Assembly (NCBI GenBank): GCA_029548865.1
Contig: JAKPMO010000020.1
Location: 1 to 20,836, forward strand
DNA length: 20,836 bases
Source of the DNA: Caldisericota bacterium
Lineage (GTDB): Bacteria > Caldisericota > Caldisericia > JAAYUI01
Direction: 5' to 3'
Part shown: piece by piece, positions 4,968-20,836 of the stretch
Layout of the letters: each line of letters begins with the position of its first letter
How positions within the stretch are numbered: position 1 is the stretch's first letter
Translations under genes and position numbers: made by a program
The notes under the pieces: generated by a model
The model's database searches: none
What the model saw: only the letters and a program-made list of their open reading frames with translations
Told to the model about the DNA's origin: nothing

Positions 4968-7151
4968 GTGAAGTCGAATAGAATATTGATAATCATTCTA
5001 ACAATCATCCTCGTGCTGGTGCCGTTTGGGCCGGCTCCCAGAAAAACAGATGCGGCGTCATATTATATCGGTGGCAGGCTGGTGCCTGGCCCTCTCCCGC
5101 CTTCGTTTTATGCCCCTTTGCCACCACTGAATGTCAGGCTGAACCTGAACTACGCCGGCTCGGCAAATAGGTGGCAGACACTGGATTTTGCAAAGCCCGT
5201 CATGTGCGCGTCTCAAAAAGTCCCGGTCATTGCTTATGTCCACGGTGGATGGTGGCTGGGTGGGAGCAAAACAGGCGCAATCTATTCCATGCCGGCCAGG
5301 CTTGCATACCAGCTTGGTTTTGCTGTTGTCTCGATCGAGTACAGGCTCGCCTCGTCCACAAACCACCACCCAAACCTGATAAATGACTGCAAGCTGGCAA
5401 TCAGATATCTGAGGGCAAATGCTGACATGCTTGGCATTGACCCAAACAGGATTGGCATCTGGGGCGGTTCGGCTGGTGGCCACCTTGTTTCACTGATGGG
5501 AACAGCAGGAGATGACGATGGGCTGGAGGGTCCGGGATTTGAGGGCTATTCGAGCAGGCCAAATGCTGTTGTCGACCAGTGCGGCATTGAAGATCTTACA
5601 AAACCTTGGGACAATACCTCAAGAATGGTTTTCGGCATTTTCCTCGGGTGCGCATACAATGTTTGCACAGACAAGGCGCAGGAGGCCTCCCCTGTGTACC
5701 AGGCCAGCCCTGATGACCCACCAATCATGATCATGCATGGTGACCATGACAATGTCGTTTCATACACGCAGGCTGAAGAGTTTGCCAGAGCCTTGAAAGC
5801 AAATGGTAATAACGGGTCTTTTATCAGGATAGTCAATGGAAACCACGGTTTTGGATCGTACAACGGCCGTGACCTTGTGTCACCAAACTGGACTGTGCAA
5901 AATCGTCTCGTAATTTCCCATCTGGCAAGATTTATTGAGCCGGGGCTGATGTGCGACCTGAACATGGACGGAAGGGTTGACCAGAGGGATGCAGATGAGC
6001 TTTGGATTCATCTTGGCGAGTCAGGTTTTGGCCCGAATGCTGAACCGACAGTGGAATCATGGAACCCTCTTGCAGATATTCATCCTGATGGAAAAATCGA
6101 TTACAAGGACATCCAGAGCTTTTGTGGCCAAATTGCAAAACCTGTAACAGTCGAGAAAAAGGTCATCCTGCCAAAAAACAGCCAGAAGATATACGAATTT
6201 GACATCGAATTATCAAACAATGGCCCGCTTGGCGTTGGCAACATAACAATTACCGACTCTTTCCCGAAGGAGCTTGTTTTTGTGTCTTCTTCCCCTCAAG
6301 GGGCCCTCAAGGGCAACAAGATCATCATCGAAAACTTGTCCCTGCCAGCAAATTCAAAATTTACAGCAAGAATTCTCTTCAAATTGTCAGATGGCTACAA
6401 ACAGCCAGAAGAGGGCGCCATTTTATCAAACAGCGTCTCCATTTCCTCGCCCGATATTTTTAACATAGAAGATCAGGTGACTTTTGCACTGCCCGGGATA
6501 AGAATCAGAAAGACCTCAAAATCTTTCAATGTCGCAGAGGGTGGATTGGCAGTTTTTCAGGTGACCGTCACCAATCCAAGCGCCCGCAGACTCACAGGGG
6601 TTGAGGTCACAGACAGTTTCCCGCGAGAACTGGCTTTTATATCATCAAGACCCTCCGGTGTAGCCTCCAATAAATCAGTGAAATTTGAGGTCGGGGACCT
6701 TGGCCCCGGTGAATCCAGAATTTTCATGCTCAATTTCAGACTTCCCAAGCTCGCCTCAACAGGCGAGGGCCAAACCATCACAAATACTGCCTCTGCATCT
6801 TCAAATGAATTGCACCCTGTTTTTTCAAGCGCCAGCATTTTCTGCCCAAAGAAGGAGCAGGGTGGAGGAGAGCTGAATATTGATATTGTCTGGAAAGGGC
6901 CCGATTCAAAGGGGAGAATCGCTGTCGGAGAAGAGATCGAGATGACAATGCAGGTAACAGGTGGCAGTGCCCCTTATGATATCTCGATTGATTTTGGCGA
7001 CAGGACAAGAAAATTGTTCTCGCTTGATGGGGAAAGAGCAGTGGAGATTGCGCACTCTTACAGCGAACCAGGCGAATATGCTGTGAAGATTTCAGTTTCG
7101 GACGCTTATGGGCGCTCCAGGGTTGTTCAGCGAAAGATAATTGTCAAATAA
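4968..7151 (+). CDS. Secreted alpha/beta hydrolase (HSL/BD-FAE-like esterase) + dockerin-type duplicated EF loop + 2x DUF11 + PKD (727 aa)
   Basis: Signal peptide after GTG 4968. HGGWW oxyanion loop, GGSAGG nucleophile elbow, HGDHDNVV Asp, NGNHGF His. DLNMDGRVDQRD / DIHPDGKIDYKD dockerin loops. Two 'N...TDSFP.EL.F.SS' DUF11 repeats. DFGD...HSYSEPGEY PKD motif. Confidence 0.85.
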   Translation: MKSNRILIIILTIILVLVPFGPAPRKTDAASYYIGGRLVPGPLPPSFYAPLPPLNVRLNLNYAGSANRWQTLDFAKPVMCASQKVPVIAYVHGGWWLGGSKTGAIYSMPARLAYQLGFAVVSIEYRLASSTNHHPNLINDCKLAIRYLRANADMLGIDPNRIGIWGGSAGGHLVSLMGTAGDDDGLEGPGFEGYSSRPNAVVDQCGIEDLTKPWDNTSRMVFGIFLGCAYNVCTDKAQEASPVYQASPDDPPIMIMHGDHDNVVSYTQAEEFARALKANGNNGSFIRIVNGNHGFGSYNGRDLVSPNWTVQNRLVISHLARFIEPGLMCDLNMDGRVDQRDADELWIHLGESGFGPNAEPTVESWNPLADIHPDGKIDYKDIQSFCGQIAKPVTVEKKVILPKNSQKIYEFDIELSNNGPLGVGNITITDSFPKELVFVSSSPQGALKGNKIIIENLSLPANSKFTARILFKLSDGYKQPEEGAILSNSVSISSPDIFNIEDQVTFALPGIRIRKTSKSFNVAEGGLAVFQVTVTNPSARRLTGVEVTDSFPRELAFISSRPSGVASNKSVKFEVGDLGPGESRIFMLNFRLPKLASTGEGQTITNTASASSNELHPVFSSASIFCPKKEQGGGELNIDIVWKGPDSKGRIAVGEEIEMTMQVTGGSAPYDISIDFGDRTRKLFSLDGERAVEIAHSYSEPGEYAVKISVSDAYGRSRVVQRKIIVK

Positions 7152-7182
7152 TTTGATTGCATTGAGTAATTAGATTTTTTCA

Positions 7183-8424
7183 TCAATCCTGGATTTTTAT
7201 GCGAAACCCGTAGATATCCCAGTCCAGGCCATTGTCTTCTGCCCAGACAATGTTGTCCCCGAAAATTCTAGCCCAGCATCTTTTGATTGGTTCCCTATCA
7301 TTTTGGCCTGTGATGTCAAAAATTTTCAGGTTGCCATTGCTGTCCATGATCGCCAATCTTACACCGGGTGTTTTGTACCATTGTTCATTTTCCGAGCGAC
7401 GATTCTCAATCCATACAATTTTCCTTCCAAAACCGCACTCGCTTACAATGCTGATGCAATCTTCCTGAAGCCACGGAGTGATGTCAAAAAGCATTGATTT
7501 TACTGGTTCAAAACCCATTAGCTTTTCTCTGCCGTTGTCAAAATTAAAGACTTTCACGACAAGAATCTCTGACTCAGGGCTAAACATAAGCGTGAGGAAA
7601 TAATCATCAGGATTGTTCCAGACATCAAAAGTTTCACCAGTCGAGATCTTGTGGCCTTTTATTTTTCCAAAAGAGTCCAGACTTAGTGAACAGGAGGTAT
7701 AGTATACATAGTCACCCTGTATCACAGGATTTTTCTCAAAAACCGCAGGATCTCCAATACTGTAGGTTATTTTTGTTTTTATGTCATACAACTTTATGTC
7801 TGAATCTGCGCCATCAAAAGACTCGTATGCCACCTTGCCATCATAAACCACGGGCCAGCACCACTGATCGTTGACAATAAAGTCGTATATGCGTGTTTTG
7901 CCTGATGGGTTTGTAATATCGGCGATATAGATTCCAGGATTTGAAACATCTGTTTCAGTCCATACAGCATATTTGTCCCAAATTGAAACACAATCTCTGG
8001 TTGCTGGGGTGTCCGAGATGGTAGTTGTGGTCTTGCTCTTGAAATTATATGCGGAAATCCAGCTGGAGCTGGAGGAGCAATTTGAATTTTTCAAAGTTAC
8101 GCAATAATCCTGGCCGATATAGCACAACTCGTCGGATGGAAATGAAGGCGCGCCATTCTTATCATCAAATATTGCTGAGAGCGATCCATCAGGGAGATTG
8201 AATGATTTTGCGCTGGTGATTCCGCCACTTTTTTCACTGAAAATTGCAAAATCTGAATTGATAAATGGCGAATACTCATCTGACGAGCTCCGCGCTATTG
8301 TAAATTCATCACCAAGAGAAATATTCATAGAAGAAGCTTTTGTGCCTGGACAGAGAAAACAGGCAGTGACGACTGTCAAAACAAGCAAGGATAATACTTT
8401 AATCTTTCCACCCCATGCCAACAT
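7183..8424 (-). CDS. Secreted TolB-like beta-propeller repeat protein (413 aa)
   Basis: AAGGAGG SD before ATG 8424; signal peptide. Repeats of the type PVVYDGKVAYES...DSDIKLYDI, PVIQGDYVYY, IFGDNIVWAEDNGLDWDIY. Confidence 0.75.
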   Translation of the reverse strand: MLAWGGKIKVLSLLVLTVVTACFLCPGTKASSMNISLGDEFTIARSSSDEYSPFINSDFAIFSEKSGGITSAKSFNLPDGSLSAIFDDKNGAPSFPSDELCYIGQDYCVTLKNSNCSSSSSWISAYNFKSKTTTTISDTPATRDCVSIWDKYAVWTETDVSNPGIYIADITNPSGKTRIYDFIVNDQWCWPVVYDGKVAYESFDGADSDIKLYDIKTKITYSIGDPAVFEKNPVIQGDYVYYTSCSLSLDSFGKIKGHKISTGETFDVWNNPDDYFLTLMFSPESEILVVKVFNFDNGREKLMGFEPVKSMLFDITPWLQEDCISIVSECGFGRKIVWIENRRSENEQWYKTPGVRLAIMDSNGNLKIFDITGQNDREPIKRCWARIFGDNIVWAEDNGLDWDIYGFRIKIQD

Positions 8425-13936: not shown

Positions 13937-13980
13937 ATAACAAAAAGCCGAACAGCAGATGCTGTTCGGCTTTTTGTTAT
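13937..13980. terminator. Bidirectional rho-independent terminator
   Basis: Perfect 21-bp inverted repeat ATAACAAAAAGCCGAACAGCA-ga-TGCTGTTCGGCTTTTTGTTAT with A/T tracts on both sides, between convergent genes. Confidence 0.9.
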
Positions 13981-15026: not shown

Positions 15027-18000
15027 TTATTTCAAAATGTCAGTATCTGGTCCAGTCCAATCTTTGCAAAGTAATTCTGCTTGTTCTAGGACCGTTTGTG
15101 TGGCCTTTTCTTGTTTATCTGGTGGGTAACCATGTTTGCGAAGAATATGCTTCACCATAACTCTGAGTTTGGCACGAGCACTTTCTTTGATTGTCCAGTC
15201 GATGGTAACATTACGGCGGATAGTCTCTAGAAGCTCCCTGGCGATTGTTCTTAAAGCGTTATCACCTAGTATTTTGACAGCACTATCATTAGTCTCCAAA
15301 GCATCATAAAAAGCCACCTCTTCTTCTGAAAGGCCCAGATTTTCCCCTCTTTTATTGGCTTCCCTGATATCTTTGGCTAATTTGATAAGCTCTTCAATAA
15401 CTTGCGCGGTTTCGATGCCCCTATTCTGATAGGCTCTTATAGATCTCTCAAGTACTTCAGCAAAAGATCTTGCTTGTACAAGGTTTTTGCGCGCACGTGT
15501 TTTAATTTCTTCATCCAGTAATTTTCGTAATAACTCTACTGCCAGATTTTTCTGTGGGATATTTCGAACCTCGGACAAGAACTCATCAGATAAGATTGAA
15601 ACATCCGGTTTTTTAAGCCCTGCGGTTGTGAAAATATCAACTATTTGGTCAGATGCAACAACTTTTGATACGAGTTGTCTAATTGCATGATCAAGGTTTT
15701 CTTCTGGTTTAGAATTTAATGCACTTGATTTTGACAAAGAAGTGCGAACTGCTTGAAAGAAAGCTATATCATCACAGATTTTTAAGGCTTTTTCATTAGG
15801 AACCGCCAGTGCAAATGCTTGAGAAAGTTCTGTAACAGCTTTAACTAGACGATCTTTACCATCATTCTTTGCTAGAATATGCTCTTGAGCATTTGGCAGC
15901 AGGTTGATTTTTTGAGCAGAGTTTGTCGTCCAACTGGACCAGTCAAACCCATGAAAAAGGTCACGACAAATTTCATATTTACTCTGCATTATTGCAACGG
16001 CTTCTTCTTGATCTATGGCAGTTTTTCCCTTGCCACCACTTTCTGTGTAATTGGCAAGCGCCTTGCGGAGATTATCGGCAAGTCCAAGATAGTCTACAAT
16101 CAAGCCGCCAGGTTTATCCTTGAATACACGGTTCACTCGAGCAATTGCTTGCATGAGGTTATGCCCACTCATCGGTTTGTCGATATACATCGTGTGAAGG
16201 CATGGCACATCAAATCCTGTAAGCCACATGTCACGCACAATCACTATCTTGAGCTGGTCACGAGGATCTTTGAAACGTTTTGCGAGTGCCTCTCTCCCTT
16301 GCTTGTTTCTTATGTGGGGCTGCCATTCTGATGGGTCTGTGGCTGAACCAGTCATTACGATTTTAATTGAACCCTTTTCATCATTTTCGTGGTGCCATTC
16401 TGGTCTCAGGGTCACGATAGCATTGTAAAGGTCAACACAAATACGTCGGCTCATACAGACAATCATTGCCTTGCCATCCATCGCTTCAAGGCGGTGCTCG
16501 AAGTGATTGATAATGTCTTTGGCAATAAGCTTAATGCGTTTTTCTGTTCCGGCTACAGCCTCCAGTGCCGCCCATTTGGTTTTTAGTTTTTCTTTTTGTG
16601 CTGCCTCTTCACCTTCTGTTATTTCTTCAAATTCCTCGTCCAAGTGAGGTTTCTCTGCCTCGTTGAGTTCCAGTTTGGCTAGACGACCTTCATAATAGAT
16701 GGGCACAGTTGCCCCATCTTCTACCGCGCGTTGGATATCGTAGATACTGATATAATCTCCGAAAACTGCCCGAGTGTTTTTGTCAGTCAAATCAATTGGG
16801 GTTCCAGTGAAACCAATAAAAGAAGCGTTTGGCAGGGCATCTCGCATGTGTCGTGCAAAACCATCAATAAAATCATATTGGCTCCGGTGGGCCTCATCTG
16901 CAATAACCACGATGTTTTGTCTGTCGGAAAGCTTTGGGAACGCATTGCCTTTTTCTTCTGGGAAAAATTTCTGGATTGTTGTGAAGATAATGCCCCCAGA
17001 AGCCACATTCAGCATTTCGCACAAGTGGACACGGCTCTCTGCCTGGATCGGTTTTTGGCGCAAAAGCTCGTGGCAACGTGAAAATGTTCCAAACAGCTGG
17101 TCATCCAGATCGTTGCGGTCCGTGATAACAACCAGTGTTGGATTTTCCATTTCTGGGCAAAGAACAATTCGTCCGGCGTAAAAAGCCATTGTCAGGCTTT
17201 TCCCGGACCCCTGGGTGTGCCAGACCACTCCGACACGGTGGTTGCCAGGCTTGCTGTCCCCATGTTGGCTTGTGGTAATTTTGCAATTGCAGGCGCGGAT
17301 TGTTTCCTGAACAGCTTCATTGACTGCATGGAACTGGTGGTATCCGGCGATTTTTTTAATGACCTTTCCGTTGCCTTCGTCCTCAAAAACAACAAAGTGC
17401 CGCAAAAAATTCAAAAAACGCTTTTTATCGAAAAGCCCTTTAAACAAAACCTCCAGCTGCGGCATTCTTGAAGATGCAGGCTCCTTGCCTTCAATGGTTT
17501 TCCAGGGTGAAAATCTCTCCCGGTCTGCTGTGAGCGATCCCACCCTTGCCGCTAGCCCGTCCGAGATGACCAGAAATTCGTTGAAAGTGAATAGTGACGG
17601 AATCTGGTTCTTGTAGGTTTGGAGCTGATTGAAGGCACCCCAGATGGTTGCGTTCTCGTCTGCCGCGTTTTTGAGCTCCACAACGGCGACAGGCAAACCG
17701 TTCAGGAAAAGGACAATGTCAGCCCTCCGGTTGTGCTGGCCCTCGACAACGGTAAACTGGTTCACTGCCAGAAAATTGTTGTTCTCCGGTTTTTCAAAAT
17801 CGGCCACCCTCACCTTGTCGTGGACTGTTCGTCCATTGGCCTGGTACTCAACATCAACCCCTTCGGTGAGCATCCGGTGAAACATCCTGTTGCACTGGAC
17901 AAGCGAGGGCGAGTCTGGCCTGGTGATTTTGCGGAAAGCATCTTCTATTGCATCTGCTGGGACCTTTGGGTTAAGGGAGGCCAAGGAATCAAGCAAGCGC

Positions 18001-18152
18001 CTGGAAAGAACAACGTCGTTGTAAGTTTTCCTCTCGGCGCTTGCCCCGTCTGGCGCGATGTTCGGGCCCTTTGCTGTCAGCCAGCCAGTGGTCCAGAGAT
18101 ACTCCATTGCGACTTCTTCGACTTCAGATTCGGTGAGGGATGTTATTTTCAT
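15027..18152 (-). CDS. hsdR: Type I restriction endonuclease subunit R (1041 aa)
   Basis: Nuclease motif [18 protein letters not shown], Walker [14 protein letters not shown] box, [23 protein letters not shown]3387-type C-terminus ([20 protein letters not shown]). Confidence 0.97.
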
Positions 18153-19903
18153 TAGAAAATATGCCAGCTTTCTCTTATCTCAGAGACAATTTTTTCAAAT
18201 TCAGCAAGGACATGTATACATTCTACATCAGTTTTACCAAAAATCCTGCTTGTCACAAACGGGGAATCATTTTCGTAGTTATTTAGTGAGTATCTTATTT
18301 CGTCTAATATCTGCTTTTCTTGTTCTTTTTGGTATATAAATCTTCCAGGAGGTGCGTAATTAGGAGAATTTGTGTCATTATGTCTGAAACTAAGTGCAAT
18401 TAGAACTTCGAGTTTGTTGAATGTATATTCGTAAGAACGATCATCGGGAATAATTTGTTTTACATATTGTCTCAAAATCTTATAAAAATGATCATTAAGA
18501 GACGTCTCACGATCAGATACCCCATCATCAACATACAAGCTTATTCCTTTTAAATGTTCGTTCAGAGGAGATAATGGTGGTAAATATTCTATTGCTAAGA
18601 TATTTCCACGAATATTCCTATGGATGTTTGTTGTGAACAGACGATTGAGAAAATAAAGTTTTTCACCTGCTACTGCACCAAGGCCAAGAATGTAAAACAA
18701 TAATGCTTTTAAATAATTCTCTAATTCTATGCTATAACTGAAATTATCTTTTAGCGACATACGCATTAAGGCTTTCTGCCATATATGCCAATGCTCCTCT
18801 TTTCTTGCATAAAAAGCGCCAATGGGCGCCATTGACAGTAAAGTTGAGCATAAAGCCTCATATTTGCGCACCCTTGTTGTTGGATCTTCTAGATTTTTAG
18901 GTTTTACATTGAAATCCTCGCCTGATATTGCTTCAACAATCTTGTTCACTGTTTCATCAACAAGGTCTCCAAACTGGATGTCATATTCAGATTTGGAAAG
19001 ATAGCGTTTCATATTTGCAACGGCCAGCTCGGTTGAGAGCGGATGGGGTTTTGAATATTTCTCAATGGCATCAACGCCATCGGCAATTTCCTGAAAGAAT
19101 GTATCTGCATCCTTGATTTCAATTTTTTGCGCATCGCGTAGCCCAATCAATTTGCTGGCCTGCTCTTTAAGCTCCCCACGAATCGCCCAGCATGTTGTAA
19201 AACGCCTTGTTTTGACACGCGACAGTGCATCGCATAATGCAGTGTCCCACTCTGCAGACCAGCCACACACTATAAGGCCGTATTCATCAAAAATCTGGTC
19301 AAGCATCTTGTTGAATTCGACAGGATATTCTTCAAGCTCGGAGGGTGTGTTTCTAATTCGATTGTCCTGGTAATCGCCGTTGATTTTAAGGATTTGGCAG
19401 CTTTTGTTTTGCGTCAATGGCAATGCACCATTGATTTGATCGGGTGTGCTTATCACCGTAGGCTTGACACCAAGTTCATCCAAGGCATTTTCCAGCAAGC
19501 GATCAAAATTTGTTGTTATGATGACTTTTATGAAACCTTTTGCAACCAGTGAGGCAATGGCTTTATGGGCTTTGGTCGGCCGTTTGTCGCCCTCATTGTT
19601 TGCGCTGTTGGGTTCAAAATATGACCGCAAAAGCTGCTGCCTTTCAGTTTTAGTTTTTGCAAGTTCCTCTAATAATTTTGAATAGTCTGGTTCCTTGCCA
19701 AATTTCTCACAATACCAGGTTTCAGGGTCAGGCTCGCATTTCTCTTTTTTTAGAACAGCTAGCCTTTGTATCAAATCTTCTGTTATTTCCCAGCCTGTTG
19801 GAATGTTGGCAGCCCTGGAAATGCCAGATCCAAGCAGTAACGCATATGTTCCAGGATTGGACTGGATTGCAAAAATTAGCGACTCGATTGGTTCAATCCC
19901 CAT
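18152..19903 (-). CDS. SIR2-like domain protein (SIR2_2 type) with uncharacterised helical C-terminal region (583 aa)
   Basis: ALLLGSGIS...IPTGW (GxGxS), [22 protein letters not shown] (usually KxHG), LIVCGWS...D. SD GGGAGG lies inside the hsdS 3' end; TAATG overlap with hsdR. Confidence 0.9.
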
Positions 19904-20836
19904 TGTGTTGTTCCTCCCTCGTTTGTTTTACCCGCAATTCCCCGGAAATGAGTTTTGGCAACAGTGTGTCACGTAAGACGGTAAGAGTGCGAGATTGGTA
20001 TTCATTTATTTCGATACATTTATCAATCGAAGATAATTCTTTTTCATAATAGATAACTAAATTATTCGGTGGTGCTAAACAAGTTATGGCATTAAAATCT
20101 TTTTTCCCAATTGATCCAAAAACTGTACCTTCAGCTTCAAAACATAGAAGTTTCCCATTTAATGCACGCATAAATTGATATGTGTATGACTGATTGCCTG
20201 TTTTATGACAAGCAGCTGCAACACCACGTCCTATAGCACAATCTTCCGAAGCCATATTAATATCGCCCACAGGTGCCCTTACGCTTACGAGTGTTTCTCC
20301 TTTTTTAGCGAACCTGCTTGGTGCTGTACAGTAAATACGGCGAATTGGAAAACGGAAACTAAAATCTGAGCAACCTTGATAAAATGGCAATCCTTTGCCG
20401 TCATCATTATATGTTTTACCTGGTGGAGATTGTCCCATTATTATATTAAATTCATCAATAATATGGCTTATCCTCCAGCCTTCGGGGATCTCGCCGAGTT
20501 CGGAGTCCACAAGCCGGTCCGGGAAAAGGTCAAAAAGATGGGCCGGGAGACCGGGGAGCGACTGGCCGCGGCGCCACCGCCCCTCCATCTTGGCGCGCAC
20601 CGGCCCGAAGTCCACAAACCAGAACTTGAACAGCGCCTGTGCCATCGCCTCCAGCGTTTCGTTTGTCCGCCGGTTTAGCTCGATTTTATCATCCAGCGTC
20701 CCCAGTATGTGCGCTATAGCCCTTTGCTCTTCAATTCTATTGGGTATACTAACAGGGAGCGGGTGAATATGATTTCTATTAAGTGTAGGTACCCCACTGC
20801 CAGAGTTAAAGCTAGATAAATCGAGCGATTTTAATA
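19893..20836 (-). CDS. hsdS: Type I RM specificity subunit S, 5'-truncated by window edge
   Basis: Frame is open to the edge (LKSLDLSSFNSGSGVPTLNRN...EEQRAIAHILGTLDDKIELNRRTNETLEAMAQALFKFWFVDF). Central conserved region DSELGEIPEGW, TRD2 MGQSP...SVRAPVG...IGRG, C-terminal LRDTLLPKLISGELRV. Confidence 0.95.
   Translation of the reverse strand, partial: LKSLDLSSFNSGSGVPTLNRNHIHPLPVSIPNRIEEQRAIAHILGTLDDKIELNRRTNETLEAMAQALFKFWFVDFGPVRAKMEGRWRRGQSLPGLPAHLFDLFPDRLVDSELGEIPEGWRISHIIDEFNIIMGQSPPGKTYNDDGKGLPFYQGCSDFSFRFPIRRIYCTAPSRFAKKGETLVSVRAPVGDINMASEDCAIGRGVAAACHKTGNQSYTYQFMRALNGKLLCFEAEGTVFGSIGKKDFNAITCLAPPNNLVIYYEKELSSIDKCIEINEYQSRTLTVLRDTLLPKLISGELRVKQTREEQHNGD

Follow-up and report, generated by a model that had tools for sequence, protein, structure and literature searches.

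Does an effector gene packed between the specificity and restriction genes of a type I restriction-modification (RM) operon guard the enzyme encoded around it, or is it a passenger for which the operon is only a place to sit? The question is raised by a 20,836-nucleotide stretch from a Caldisericota bacterium (contig JAKPMO010000020.1 of assembly GCA_029548865.1, hereafter the window, which is the entire contig C24 of its genome), the minus strand of which carries hsdS, a gene for a 583-residue protein with an N-terminal SIR2 domain (the SIR2 gene) and hsdR. A preliminary description had read the SIR2 protein as a guard bound to the type I complex that would deplete NAD+ when a phage inhibits restriction. 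What it said of the arrangement was confirmed: the minus-strand frames and Pfam give the order hsdS-SIR2-hsdR with no intergenic space, and in the sequence the SIR2 ATG sits 11 nt within hsdS, its Shine-Dalgarno motif also lies within hsdS, and the SIR2 TAA and the hsdR ATG have one base in common (TAATG). As a whole, the guard interpretation is partly supported; of the findings it had named beforehand as speaking against it, two were made, that is, the protein matches a named family and its homologs lie mostly outside type I operons. We consider it rather probable that the protein is a self-contained one-gene anti-phage system, a sensor-NADase carried as an exchangeable passenger in the slot between hsdS and hsdR and likely independent of the restriction enzyme. 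According to this proposal the helical C-terminal domain (the tail) would sense a phage product, sensing would switch on the SIR2 domain, and the active SIR2 domain would destroy NAD+ and abort infection, the gene being carried in the slot as a swappable passenger with no need of the restriction enzyme.

Family membership and the C-terminal tail

The window protein is a member of PADLOC family PDC-S65 from end to end: residues 3-575 align with positions 16-588 of the 592 positions of model PDLC05061 (E 9.5e-194), a second PDC-S65 model, PDLC05060, matches at E 2.1e-130, and the tail alone matches both models (E 1.7e-42). All other models of SIR2 systems in PADLOC and NCBIfam reach only the N-terminal part of the protein. 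According to the parts compared here of the preprint that describes the PDC class (Payne 2024, bioRxiv 10.1101/2024.01.29.577857), the class comprises 145 candidates without activity tests, chosen because they lie embedded within loci of BREX, DISARM or type I RM; S65 and SIR2 are not named in its main text, supplementary tables S3-S8 being outside this comparison. The window protein is likewise a single gene embedded in type I RM, its tail is included in the match, and there is no essential difference from PDC-S65. A literature search, with most subscription papers outside its reach, found no experiments on PDC-S65 and no paper naming it and, with the same limited coverage, no published SIR2 guard of an RM enzyme. 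Members of PDC-S65 were found at both embedded and free-standing loci, without a conserved partner gene. The window gene is a member of an already catalogued candidate family, the locus itself is ordinary, and no new RM-guard system is shown there. The modularity of the tail, its mosaicism and the His/Asn dimorphism described below are absent from the parts of Payne 2024 that were compared.

The SIR2 domain matches SPARSA Sir2 best in structure (8y80_E; Z 24.8, root-mean-square deviation (rmsd) 3.7, 271 aligned residues, residues 4-283), and the best sequence match is also SPARSA GsSir2 (E 1.2e-14); the Pfam family SIR2_2 matches at E 1.2e-10. The predicted structure thereby bears out the NADase-type fold that had been claimed. 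The features by which SIR2 NADases of defence systems are recognized are present, that is, a Rossmann-type fold with GSGxS and TTNFD, the latter holding the catalytic Asn. Homologs of the protein numbered 4979 among the 8000 candidates scored. A role of the window protein in defence is likely.

Over the first 280 codons the G+C content of the SIR2 gene is 0.44, falling to 0.35 beyond, and residues 285-583 are predicted to form a confident, almost entirely helical domain (pLDDT, the predicted local distance difference test, 93; predicted template-modelling score (pTM) 0.93), in agreement with the AT-rich, helical C-terminus of about 300 residues described previously. No Pfam family was matched by the tail of the window copy, and no PDB sequence was matched either. 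In structure searches with the tail, the best VIA match among 48,161 chains had Z 7.6, none reaching 8, Foldseek returned nothing at E ≤0.001, and leads from the ESM Atlas scored only 0.77-0.80; such weak matches do not imply a new fold. Three single-member Pfam hits among 131 tail members were taken as chance.

A profile built from these 131 tails retrieved 3476 representatives at 50% clustering. Among the best 150 of these matches, 87 had a SIR2 domain, 13 had another N-terminus of more than 60 residues and 50 had little or nothing ahead of the tail, the Pfam scan having covered 48 of the 150. The 13 other N-termini were six TIR_2 domains (one SEFIR-like), single cases of AlbA_2, DUF4143, HicB and PilZ, a weak match to a CBASS TIR and two without assignment. 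The TIR-tail fusion P0136 has four relatives at 77-84% identity, and its tail shares 57-61% identity with tails fused to SIR2, which would make the exchange of effector fairly recent. The reverse case also occurs, the same SIR2 domain being fused to NB-ARC in related genomes (L164). These fusions suggest that the tail is likely to behave as a portable sensor. The tail family is thus large, lacks a clear structural match and is common to two unrelated NADase folds. One further record, P0166, in which a C5 methyltransferase N-terminus is joined with an incomplete SIR2 domain and the tail, is possibly a deletion product.

Within the lineage of the window the tail is mosaic. The DNA of locus L084 is 91-100% identical to the window outside one block and 60-79% identical within it, at residues 368-517, although the second target recognition domain (TRD2) of HsdS is identical and HsdR is 97% identical; in L083 the divergence runs from residue 368 through to the end. 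Among strains, DNA identity is 54-79% in the tail block and 91-100% over both the SIR2 domain and the 5' end of hsdR. At the protein level, residues 376-480 are 39-46% identical between strains with 88-100% identity in the SIR2 domain and 97% in HsdR, and the tail differs between strains in which HsdM and HsdR are 97-99% identical. Sequencing run X8 contains the window allele and, besides it, a junction of the L084 type. A tail that varies next to constant HsdR and HsdM is not what would be expected of a surface that binds Hsd proteins; it would rather be expected of a surface that meets changing phage proteins. In this lineage there are also natural pairs of alleles that, on a near-identical background, are distinguished solely by the tail block or by residue 175 (His or Asn), so that the questions of trigger and catalysis are directly testable.

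By analogy, DSR2 and DSR1 are the closest working model for the window protein. Each is a single gene with an N-terminal SIR2 domain (Z 19 to that of the window protein) and a helical C-terminal region, and DSR2 is triggered by phage tail tube protein according to the part of the literature covered. They are, however, longer, at about 1000-1260 residues against 583, the window protein scores 16.6 bits on the Dsr1 model NF041818 against a cut-off of 1400, and the structural alignments are mainly of residues 1-287. Whole-model Foldseek alignments with DSR2 are long but have an rmsd of about 20, and tail-only searches gave no clear match. SPARSA Sir2-APAZ (GsSir2), ThsA, KomC and Avs5 belong to the same SIR2 NADase subfamily, the likeness ending at about residue 285. 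SLOG is an alpha/beta fold. In ThsA the SIR2 domain is fused to SLOG/STALD, whereas the window tail is predicted to be helical and has no Pfam match, and ThsA models cover only residues 106-181. The observation that no partner of a known SIR2 system is visible was upheld. No ThsB TIR partner lies in the operon, and TIR_2 and ThsB_TIR gave no matches in the genome, which is 93% complete; for SPARSA and SIR2-HerA, the neighbours are hsdS and hsdR, and neither Piwi nor DUF87 was matched in that genome, the DUF87 zero being weak, as all 14 control genomes gave signal.

The hsdS-hsdR slot and the surroundings of the homologs

For the survey of genomic context, the best 80 were taken from at least 570 matches in genomes and another 80, again the best, from at least 340 in metagenomes, both sets being biased to close relatives. 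The loci were searched by tblastn, the queries coming from Hsd and other RM systems. The counts refer to the genome loci flanked on both sides by 5 kb or more, which number 67, 13 short ones being dropped. A script assigned 17 of them to an embedded class, 10 to a one-sided class, 10 to other RM or BREX and 30 to none; L067 was then moved from embedded to traces because only hsd remnants are found there, and L023 (BREX) and L074 (type IIG-like) were moved out of the last class because of PADLOC scans. The scans covered 194 of the 234 open reading frames (ORFs) of at least 230 residues, 37 others being named by Pfam or PADLOC directly or via a cluster mate and 3 remaining unscanned. In the final classification, the 67 loci comprise 16 with the gene between hsdS and hsdR, 11 with type I traces of another kind (as many as four of which may be embedded operons extending beyond the flank), 12 near MmeI, type IIG, type III, ISP or BREX genes, and 28 with no RM gene, 11 of these having some other PADLOC match nearby. 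Furthermore, none of the five best of 46 plasmid hits was inside an annotated hsd operon, and hsd genes were found at two of nine loci on viral contigs. The type I label changes 16 times on an 85-row FastTree tree, which carried long-branch warnings, and 10 of these changes are forced by well-supported branches. The link of homologs to hsd operons that had been anticipated therefore exists as an enrichment but not as a majority; the family is strongly enriched in RM loci, far short of a constant linkage like that of prrC.

The context is labile in other ways. In L002, L061 and L067 an intact SIR2-family gene stands next to hsd genes that are internally deleted or reduced to remnants, and in L029 a scar of the hsdS 3' end precedes a SIR2-family gene at a place with no hsd genes. 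No conserved partner emerged either, the commonest non-RM neighbour being present in only 8 of the 80 genome loci. This neighbour, a gene for a 378-residue protein (cluster 4, mostly in one clade), was rejected as a partner, as it is missing from most loci and has no family or structure match. It adjoins Asn175-type SIR2 genes in L003, L015, L020, L025 and L056 (about 6859-7995) and often follows a DUF4365 gene; it has no Pfam or PDB match and falls in unnamed Atlas clusters. In L057 and L065 the SIR2 gene stands tail to tail with a SIR2-HerA system.

The slot itself accepts many genes. At homolog loci it also holds Abi_C, RloC-like AAA_13, ThsB-TIR with 8xMP, Fic, KAP NTPase, McrBC and others. 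Across the phylum, this type of HsdR occurs in 19 of 93 genomes and the SIR2 query matches in 8 of 93, mostly over the SIR2 domain only, and all five hsd operons inspected hold other genes abutting hsdS and hsdR. In the same-genus genome G059 (HsdR 94%, HsdM 97% identical), which gave no SIR2 match, the orthologous slot is occupied by PDC-S19 (L207 5813-6883), which starts 5 nt after hsdS and overlaps hsdR by 4 nt. The tight junctions at the window locus are real, but they are not special to the SIR2 gene. Duplicated ends of hsdS (3') or hsdR (5') were found as scars in 9 of 160 loci, which suggests from the sequences that cargo enters by recombination within these two conserved ends, likely also the route by which the gene spreads; tight junctions could then be explained without functional coupling. 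Duplicated hsdR 5' fragments had been considered as decoy partners, an idea that was rejected in favour of their being recombination scars. Tandem cargo cassettes between repeated hsdR 5' ends were seen in L089 (6061-9064), L090 (1915-6885) and L096 (9746-12250); a 495-residue protein encoded in them has an N-terminus that we take, from a motif, to be deaminase-like.

The active site and rival explanations

In the active site, Asn132 is invariant in all 277 aligned rows (a redundant set made up of 120 homolog proteins, 156 of the 160 loci with a frame of at least 300 residues, and the window). The His of the Asn-His dyad, however, is not present in the window copy, which has Asn175, a substitution that the earlier reading of the domain as an effector had overlooked; its other parts, a defence role and a sensor-like C-terminus, are likely to stand. 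A sequencing error was excluded, as the same letters are found in L081, L082, L085 and contigs of runs X8 and X12. Across the rows, position 175 is occupied by His 231 times, by Asn 45 times and by Ser once. The replacement makes the activity of the window copy uncertain, and the copy could be dead or weakened, carried as a passenger or acting only as an NAD+-binding scaffold. That would be consistent with the four closest relatives (73-95% identity), all of which keep His (CAC), with the loss of NADase activity on changing the aligned GsSir2 H186 to Ala (PMC10781750, in the parts consulted) and with the like inactivity of KomC H146A (PMC13454610, likewise in part). An H146N mutant of KomC was moreover used for a structure. 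Yet the Asn/His state shows at least seven changes on the 85-row tree, Asn stands at the His site in six of nine viral-contig homologs and in SIR2-NB-ARC fusions, 43 of the 45 Asn carriers are full length, and at 22 other active-site columns these carriers deviate 6 times in 990, against 20 in 5082. From these alignments Asn175 is a tolerated, recurrent natural variant, and Asn might keep the hydrogen-bonding and water-gating role that the consulted parts of PMC10781750 give to the His of GsSir2. We regard a dead or weakened copy as quite improbable, and NADase activity as likely for the family. Same-subfamily SIR2 domains with Asn at the His site are also found in the related genomes of L164, L169 (G066 C1 976704-980999) and L170, and G066 has two long SIR2 copies in tandem. 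A full-length Asn-type homolog lies on a viral contig (L181 5001-6773) with no RM gene in its flank, where the neighbours resemble phage tail and capsid genes, read by eye with no family search.

Several observations weigh against the independent sensor-NADase that we favour. The loss of GsSir2 activity with Ala at the site where the window copy has Asn is one. No PADLOC match is found nearby in 17 of the 28 RM-free loci, so that the defence role rests on domain content and mobility, and the single-record fusions of the tail (HicB, PilZ, DUF4143) may be read-through accidents. The remaining points concern the RM context: 39 of the 67 loci are near some RM or BREX gene or remnant; the 13 metagenome loci with full flanks, including L081, a twin of the window locus, are embedded in eight cases, near other RM in two and near none in three; all embedded loci of both surveys carry one HindI-like type of HsdR; on the tree, the type I label forms clusters (16 changes, compared with 28.5 when shuffled); and the distances among SIR2 proteins are correlated with those of HsdR and HsdM (rho 0.54-0.76, 23 loci), although linkage and kinship would account for such correlations, and the comparison is one without an unrelated-cargo control. 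The HsdR type and the distance correlations are what a PrrC-like guard would predict, that is, a SIR2 protein bound and silenced by the type I complex that fires once the enzyme is inhibited by a phage protein. So is the position, as the gene fills the prrC slot with tight junctions, a toxic-type effector between hsdS and hsdR like PrrC in EcoprrI, and in 38 of 160 loci an hsdS 3' end is found no more than 150 nt upstream; a contig from one RNA library (X15) crosses the SIR2-hsdR junction, a weak indication that may be DNA and comes from coverage of one of six RNA runs, in which such contigs have a small share. PrrC, however, combines an ABC ATPase with an anticodon nuclease, neither of which was found in the window protein with Pfam, PADLOC or NCBIfam. 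In the parts of PMC3458546 consulted, moreover, prrC is always linked to RM and RloC rarely, whereas PDC-S65 homologs are mostly outside type I operons and 28 of 67 loci lack RM altogether. In context RloC thus comes nearer as a precedent, and the slot is also used by RloC-like AAA_13 genes. Nor does a guard sit well with intact copies beside decayed hsd genes, with a tail whose correlation with HsdR is the lowest (0.54, against 0.88 for HsdM-HsdR, 23 loci) and which is exchanged while HsdR, HsdM and, in L084, even TRD2 stay constant, with the G035 homolog, which lies between hsdM and hsdS of an operon with a different HsdR type, or with a slot that accepts unrelated genes. We therefore consider the guard role very unlikely, although one confined to an embedded subclade may exist, and the protein is likely to be independent of Hsd.

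What the tail would sense admits of two further alternatives. It could detect phage anti-restriction proteins (DNA mimics or similar) directly without binding Hsd, as in PARIS, with the best payoff beside RM or BREX. The proximity of 39 of the 67 loci to RM or BREX of several types would fit, as would the modular, polymorphic tail and the embedded systems triggered by Ocr that are discussed in the compared parts of Payne 2024; on the other hand, defence genes in general gather at RM loci, as that text and the diversity of slot cargo indicate, and block-level hypervariability is equally compatible with many other triggers, so that this trigger strikes us as improbable. Sensors of second messengers, SAVED among them, likewise occur in fusions with many effectors. 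The tail might accordingly bind a nucleotide signal that another enzyme makes, following Thoeris or CBASS logic, the gene being the orphan effector of a two-part system. A pair of a ThsB-type TIR gene and the 8xMP membrane protein gene is indeed present downstream of the SIR2 gene inside hsd operons in 4 of the 80 genome loci (L001, L031, L045, L051). Against this stand the lack of a conserved partner (8 of 80 loci at most) and of a TIR_2 or ThsB match in the window genome, the restriction of ThsA matches to residues 106-181, and block swaps, which would be easier to reconcile with a protein as ligand than with a small molecule; there is little chance, in our view, that a nucleotide is the signal. 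Sensing of a phage product by the tail of a one-gene system remains the likely case. A bolder extension of it would have the tail as a new portable immune sensor fold, found in thousands of proteins on effectors such as SIR2 and TIR, retuned by block exchange like the recognition domains of hsdS, sensing phage anti-restriction proteins and backing up any RM or BREX system without contact, with Asn175 as the mark of a second version, also active, of the SIR2 NADase site; as a whole, we think this unlikely.

The operon and its neighbours

The positions of the features are collected in the table below.

Table. Features of the hsdS-SIR2-hsdR locus, with window coordinates
Feature	Position	Strand	Evidence
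hsdS 3' two-thirds (end of TRD1, central conserved region, TRD2)	19893-20834, open at contig end	-	PF01420 Methylase_S; PADLOC Specificity_I
GGAGG, Shine-Dalgarno-like motif inside the last hsdS codons, 9 nt ahead of the SIR2 ATG	19913-19917	-	sequence
PDC-S65 family gene, 583 residues: SIR2 domain and helical C-terminal domain	18152-19903	-	PADLOC PDLC05061
SIR2 domain (defence NADase-type), residues 1-283	19055-19903	-	Pfam SIR2_2; SPARSA Sir2 structure match
Asn132 of TTNFD, aligned to GsSir2 N142	19508-19510	-	alignment
Asn175 (AAC) at the catalytic-His position (GsSir2 H186)	19379-19381	-	alignment
Helical C-terminal domain (tail), residues 285-583, putative sensor	18155-19051	-	structure prediction, profile searches
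Exchanged tail block, about residues 368-517	18351-18800	-	strain alignments
TAATG, SIR2 stop and hsdR start overlapping	18150-18154	-	sequence
hsdR, 1041 residues, HindI-like type I restriction subunit	15027-18152	-	Pfam HSDR_N/T1RH-like_C; PADLOC REase_I E 0; TIGR00348

No hsdM was found within the window. The complete operon, hsdM-rhuM-hsdS-SIR2-hsdR, is present in L081, an assembly whose SIR2 gene is 100% identical, and contig C1 of the same genome as the window carries hsdM, a RhuM-family gene and the 5' half of hsdS. The RhuM-family gene lies between hsdM and hsdS, at 689-1825 of contig C1 and at 5517-6650 of L081. The ends of C1 (3-692) and C24 (20700-20836) cover the same conserved region with different sequences of the first target recognition domain (TRD1), and it is probably because of this difference that the assembly breaks at hsdS. 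In the lineage, the hsdS recognition domains are shuffled, with five TRD1 and two TRD2 alleles among six contigs (including L081, L083, L084 and L085). A scan of L081 for promoters and terminators was uninformative: it gave 18 promoter sites, where shuffled sequences gave 17.0, and 15 terminator sites, where they gave 11.1. A second type I system of the genome (contig C23 11839-18977) has two genes inserted between hsdM and hsdS.

Elsewhere in the window, a hairpin with A and T runs at its sides lies between convergent genes (13942-13977) and is likely a bidirectional terminator. The ORF at 3-1085 has no Pfam match and bears near its start what we take to be an RHS-core-like motif; it overlaps a lipoprotein-like beta-propeller gene (1082-2437), with which it could form a polymorphic toxin-immunity pair.

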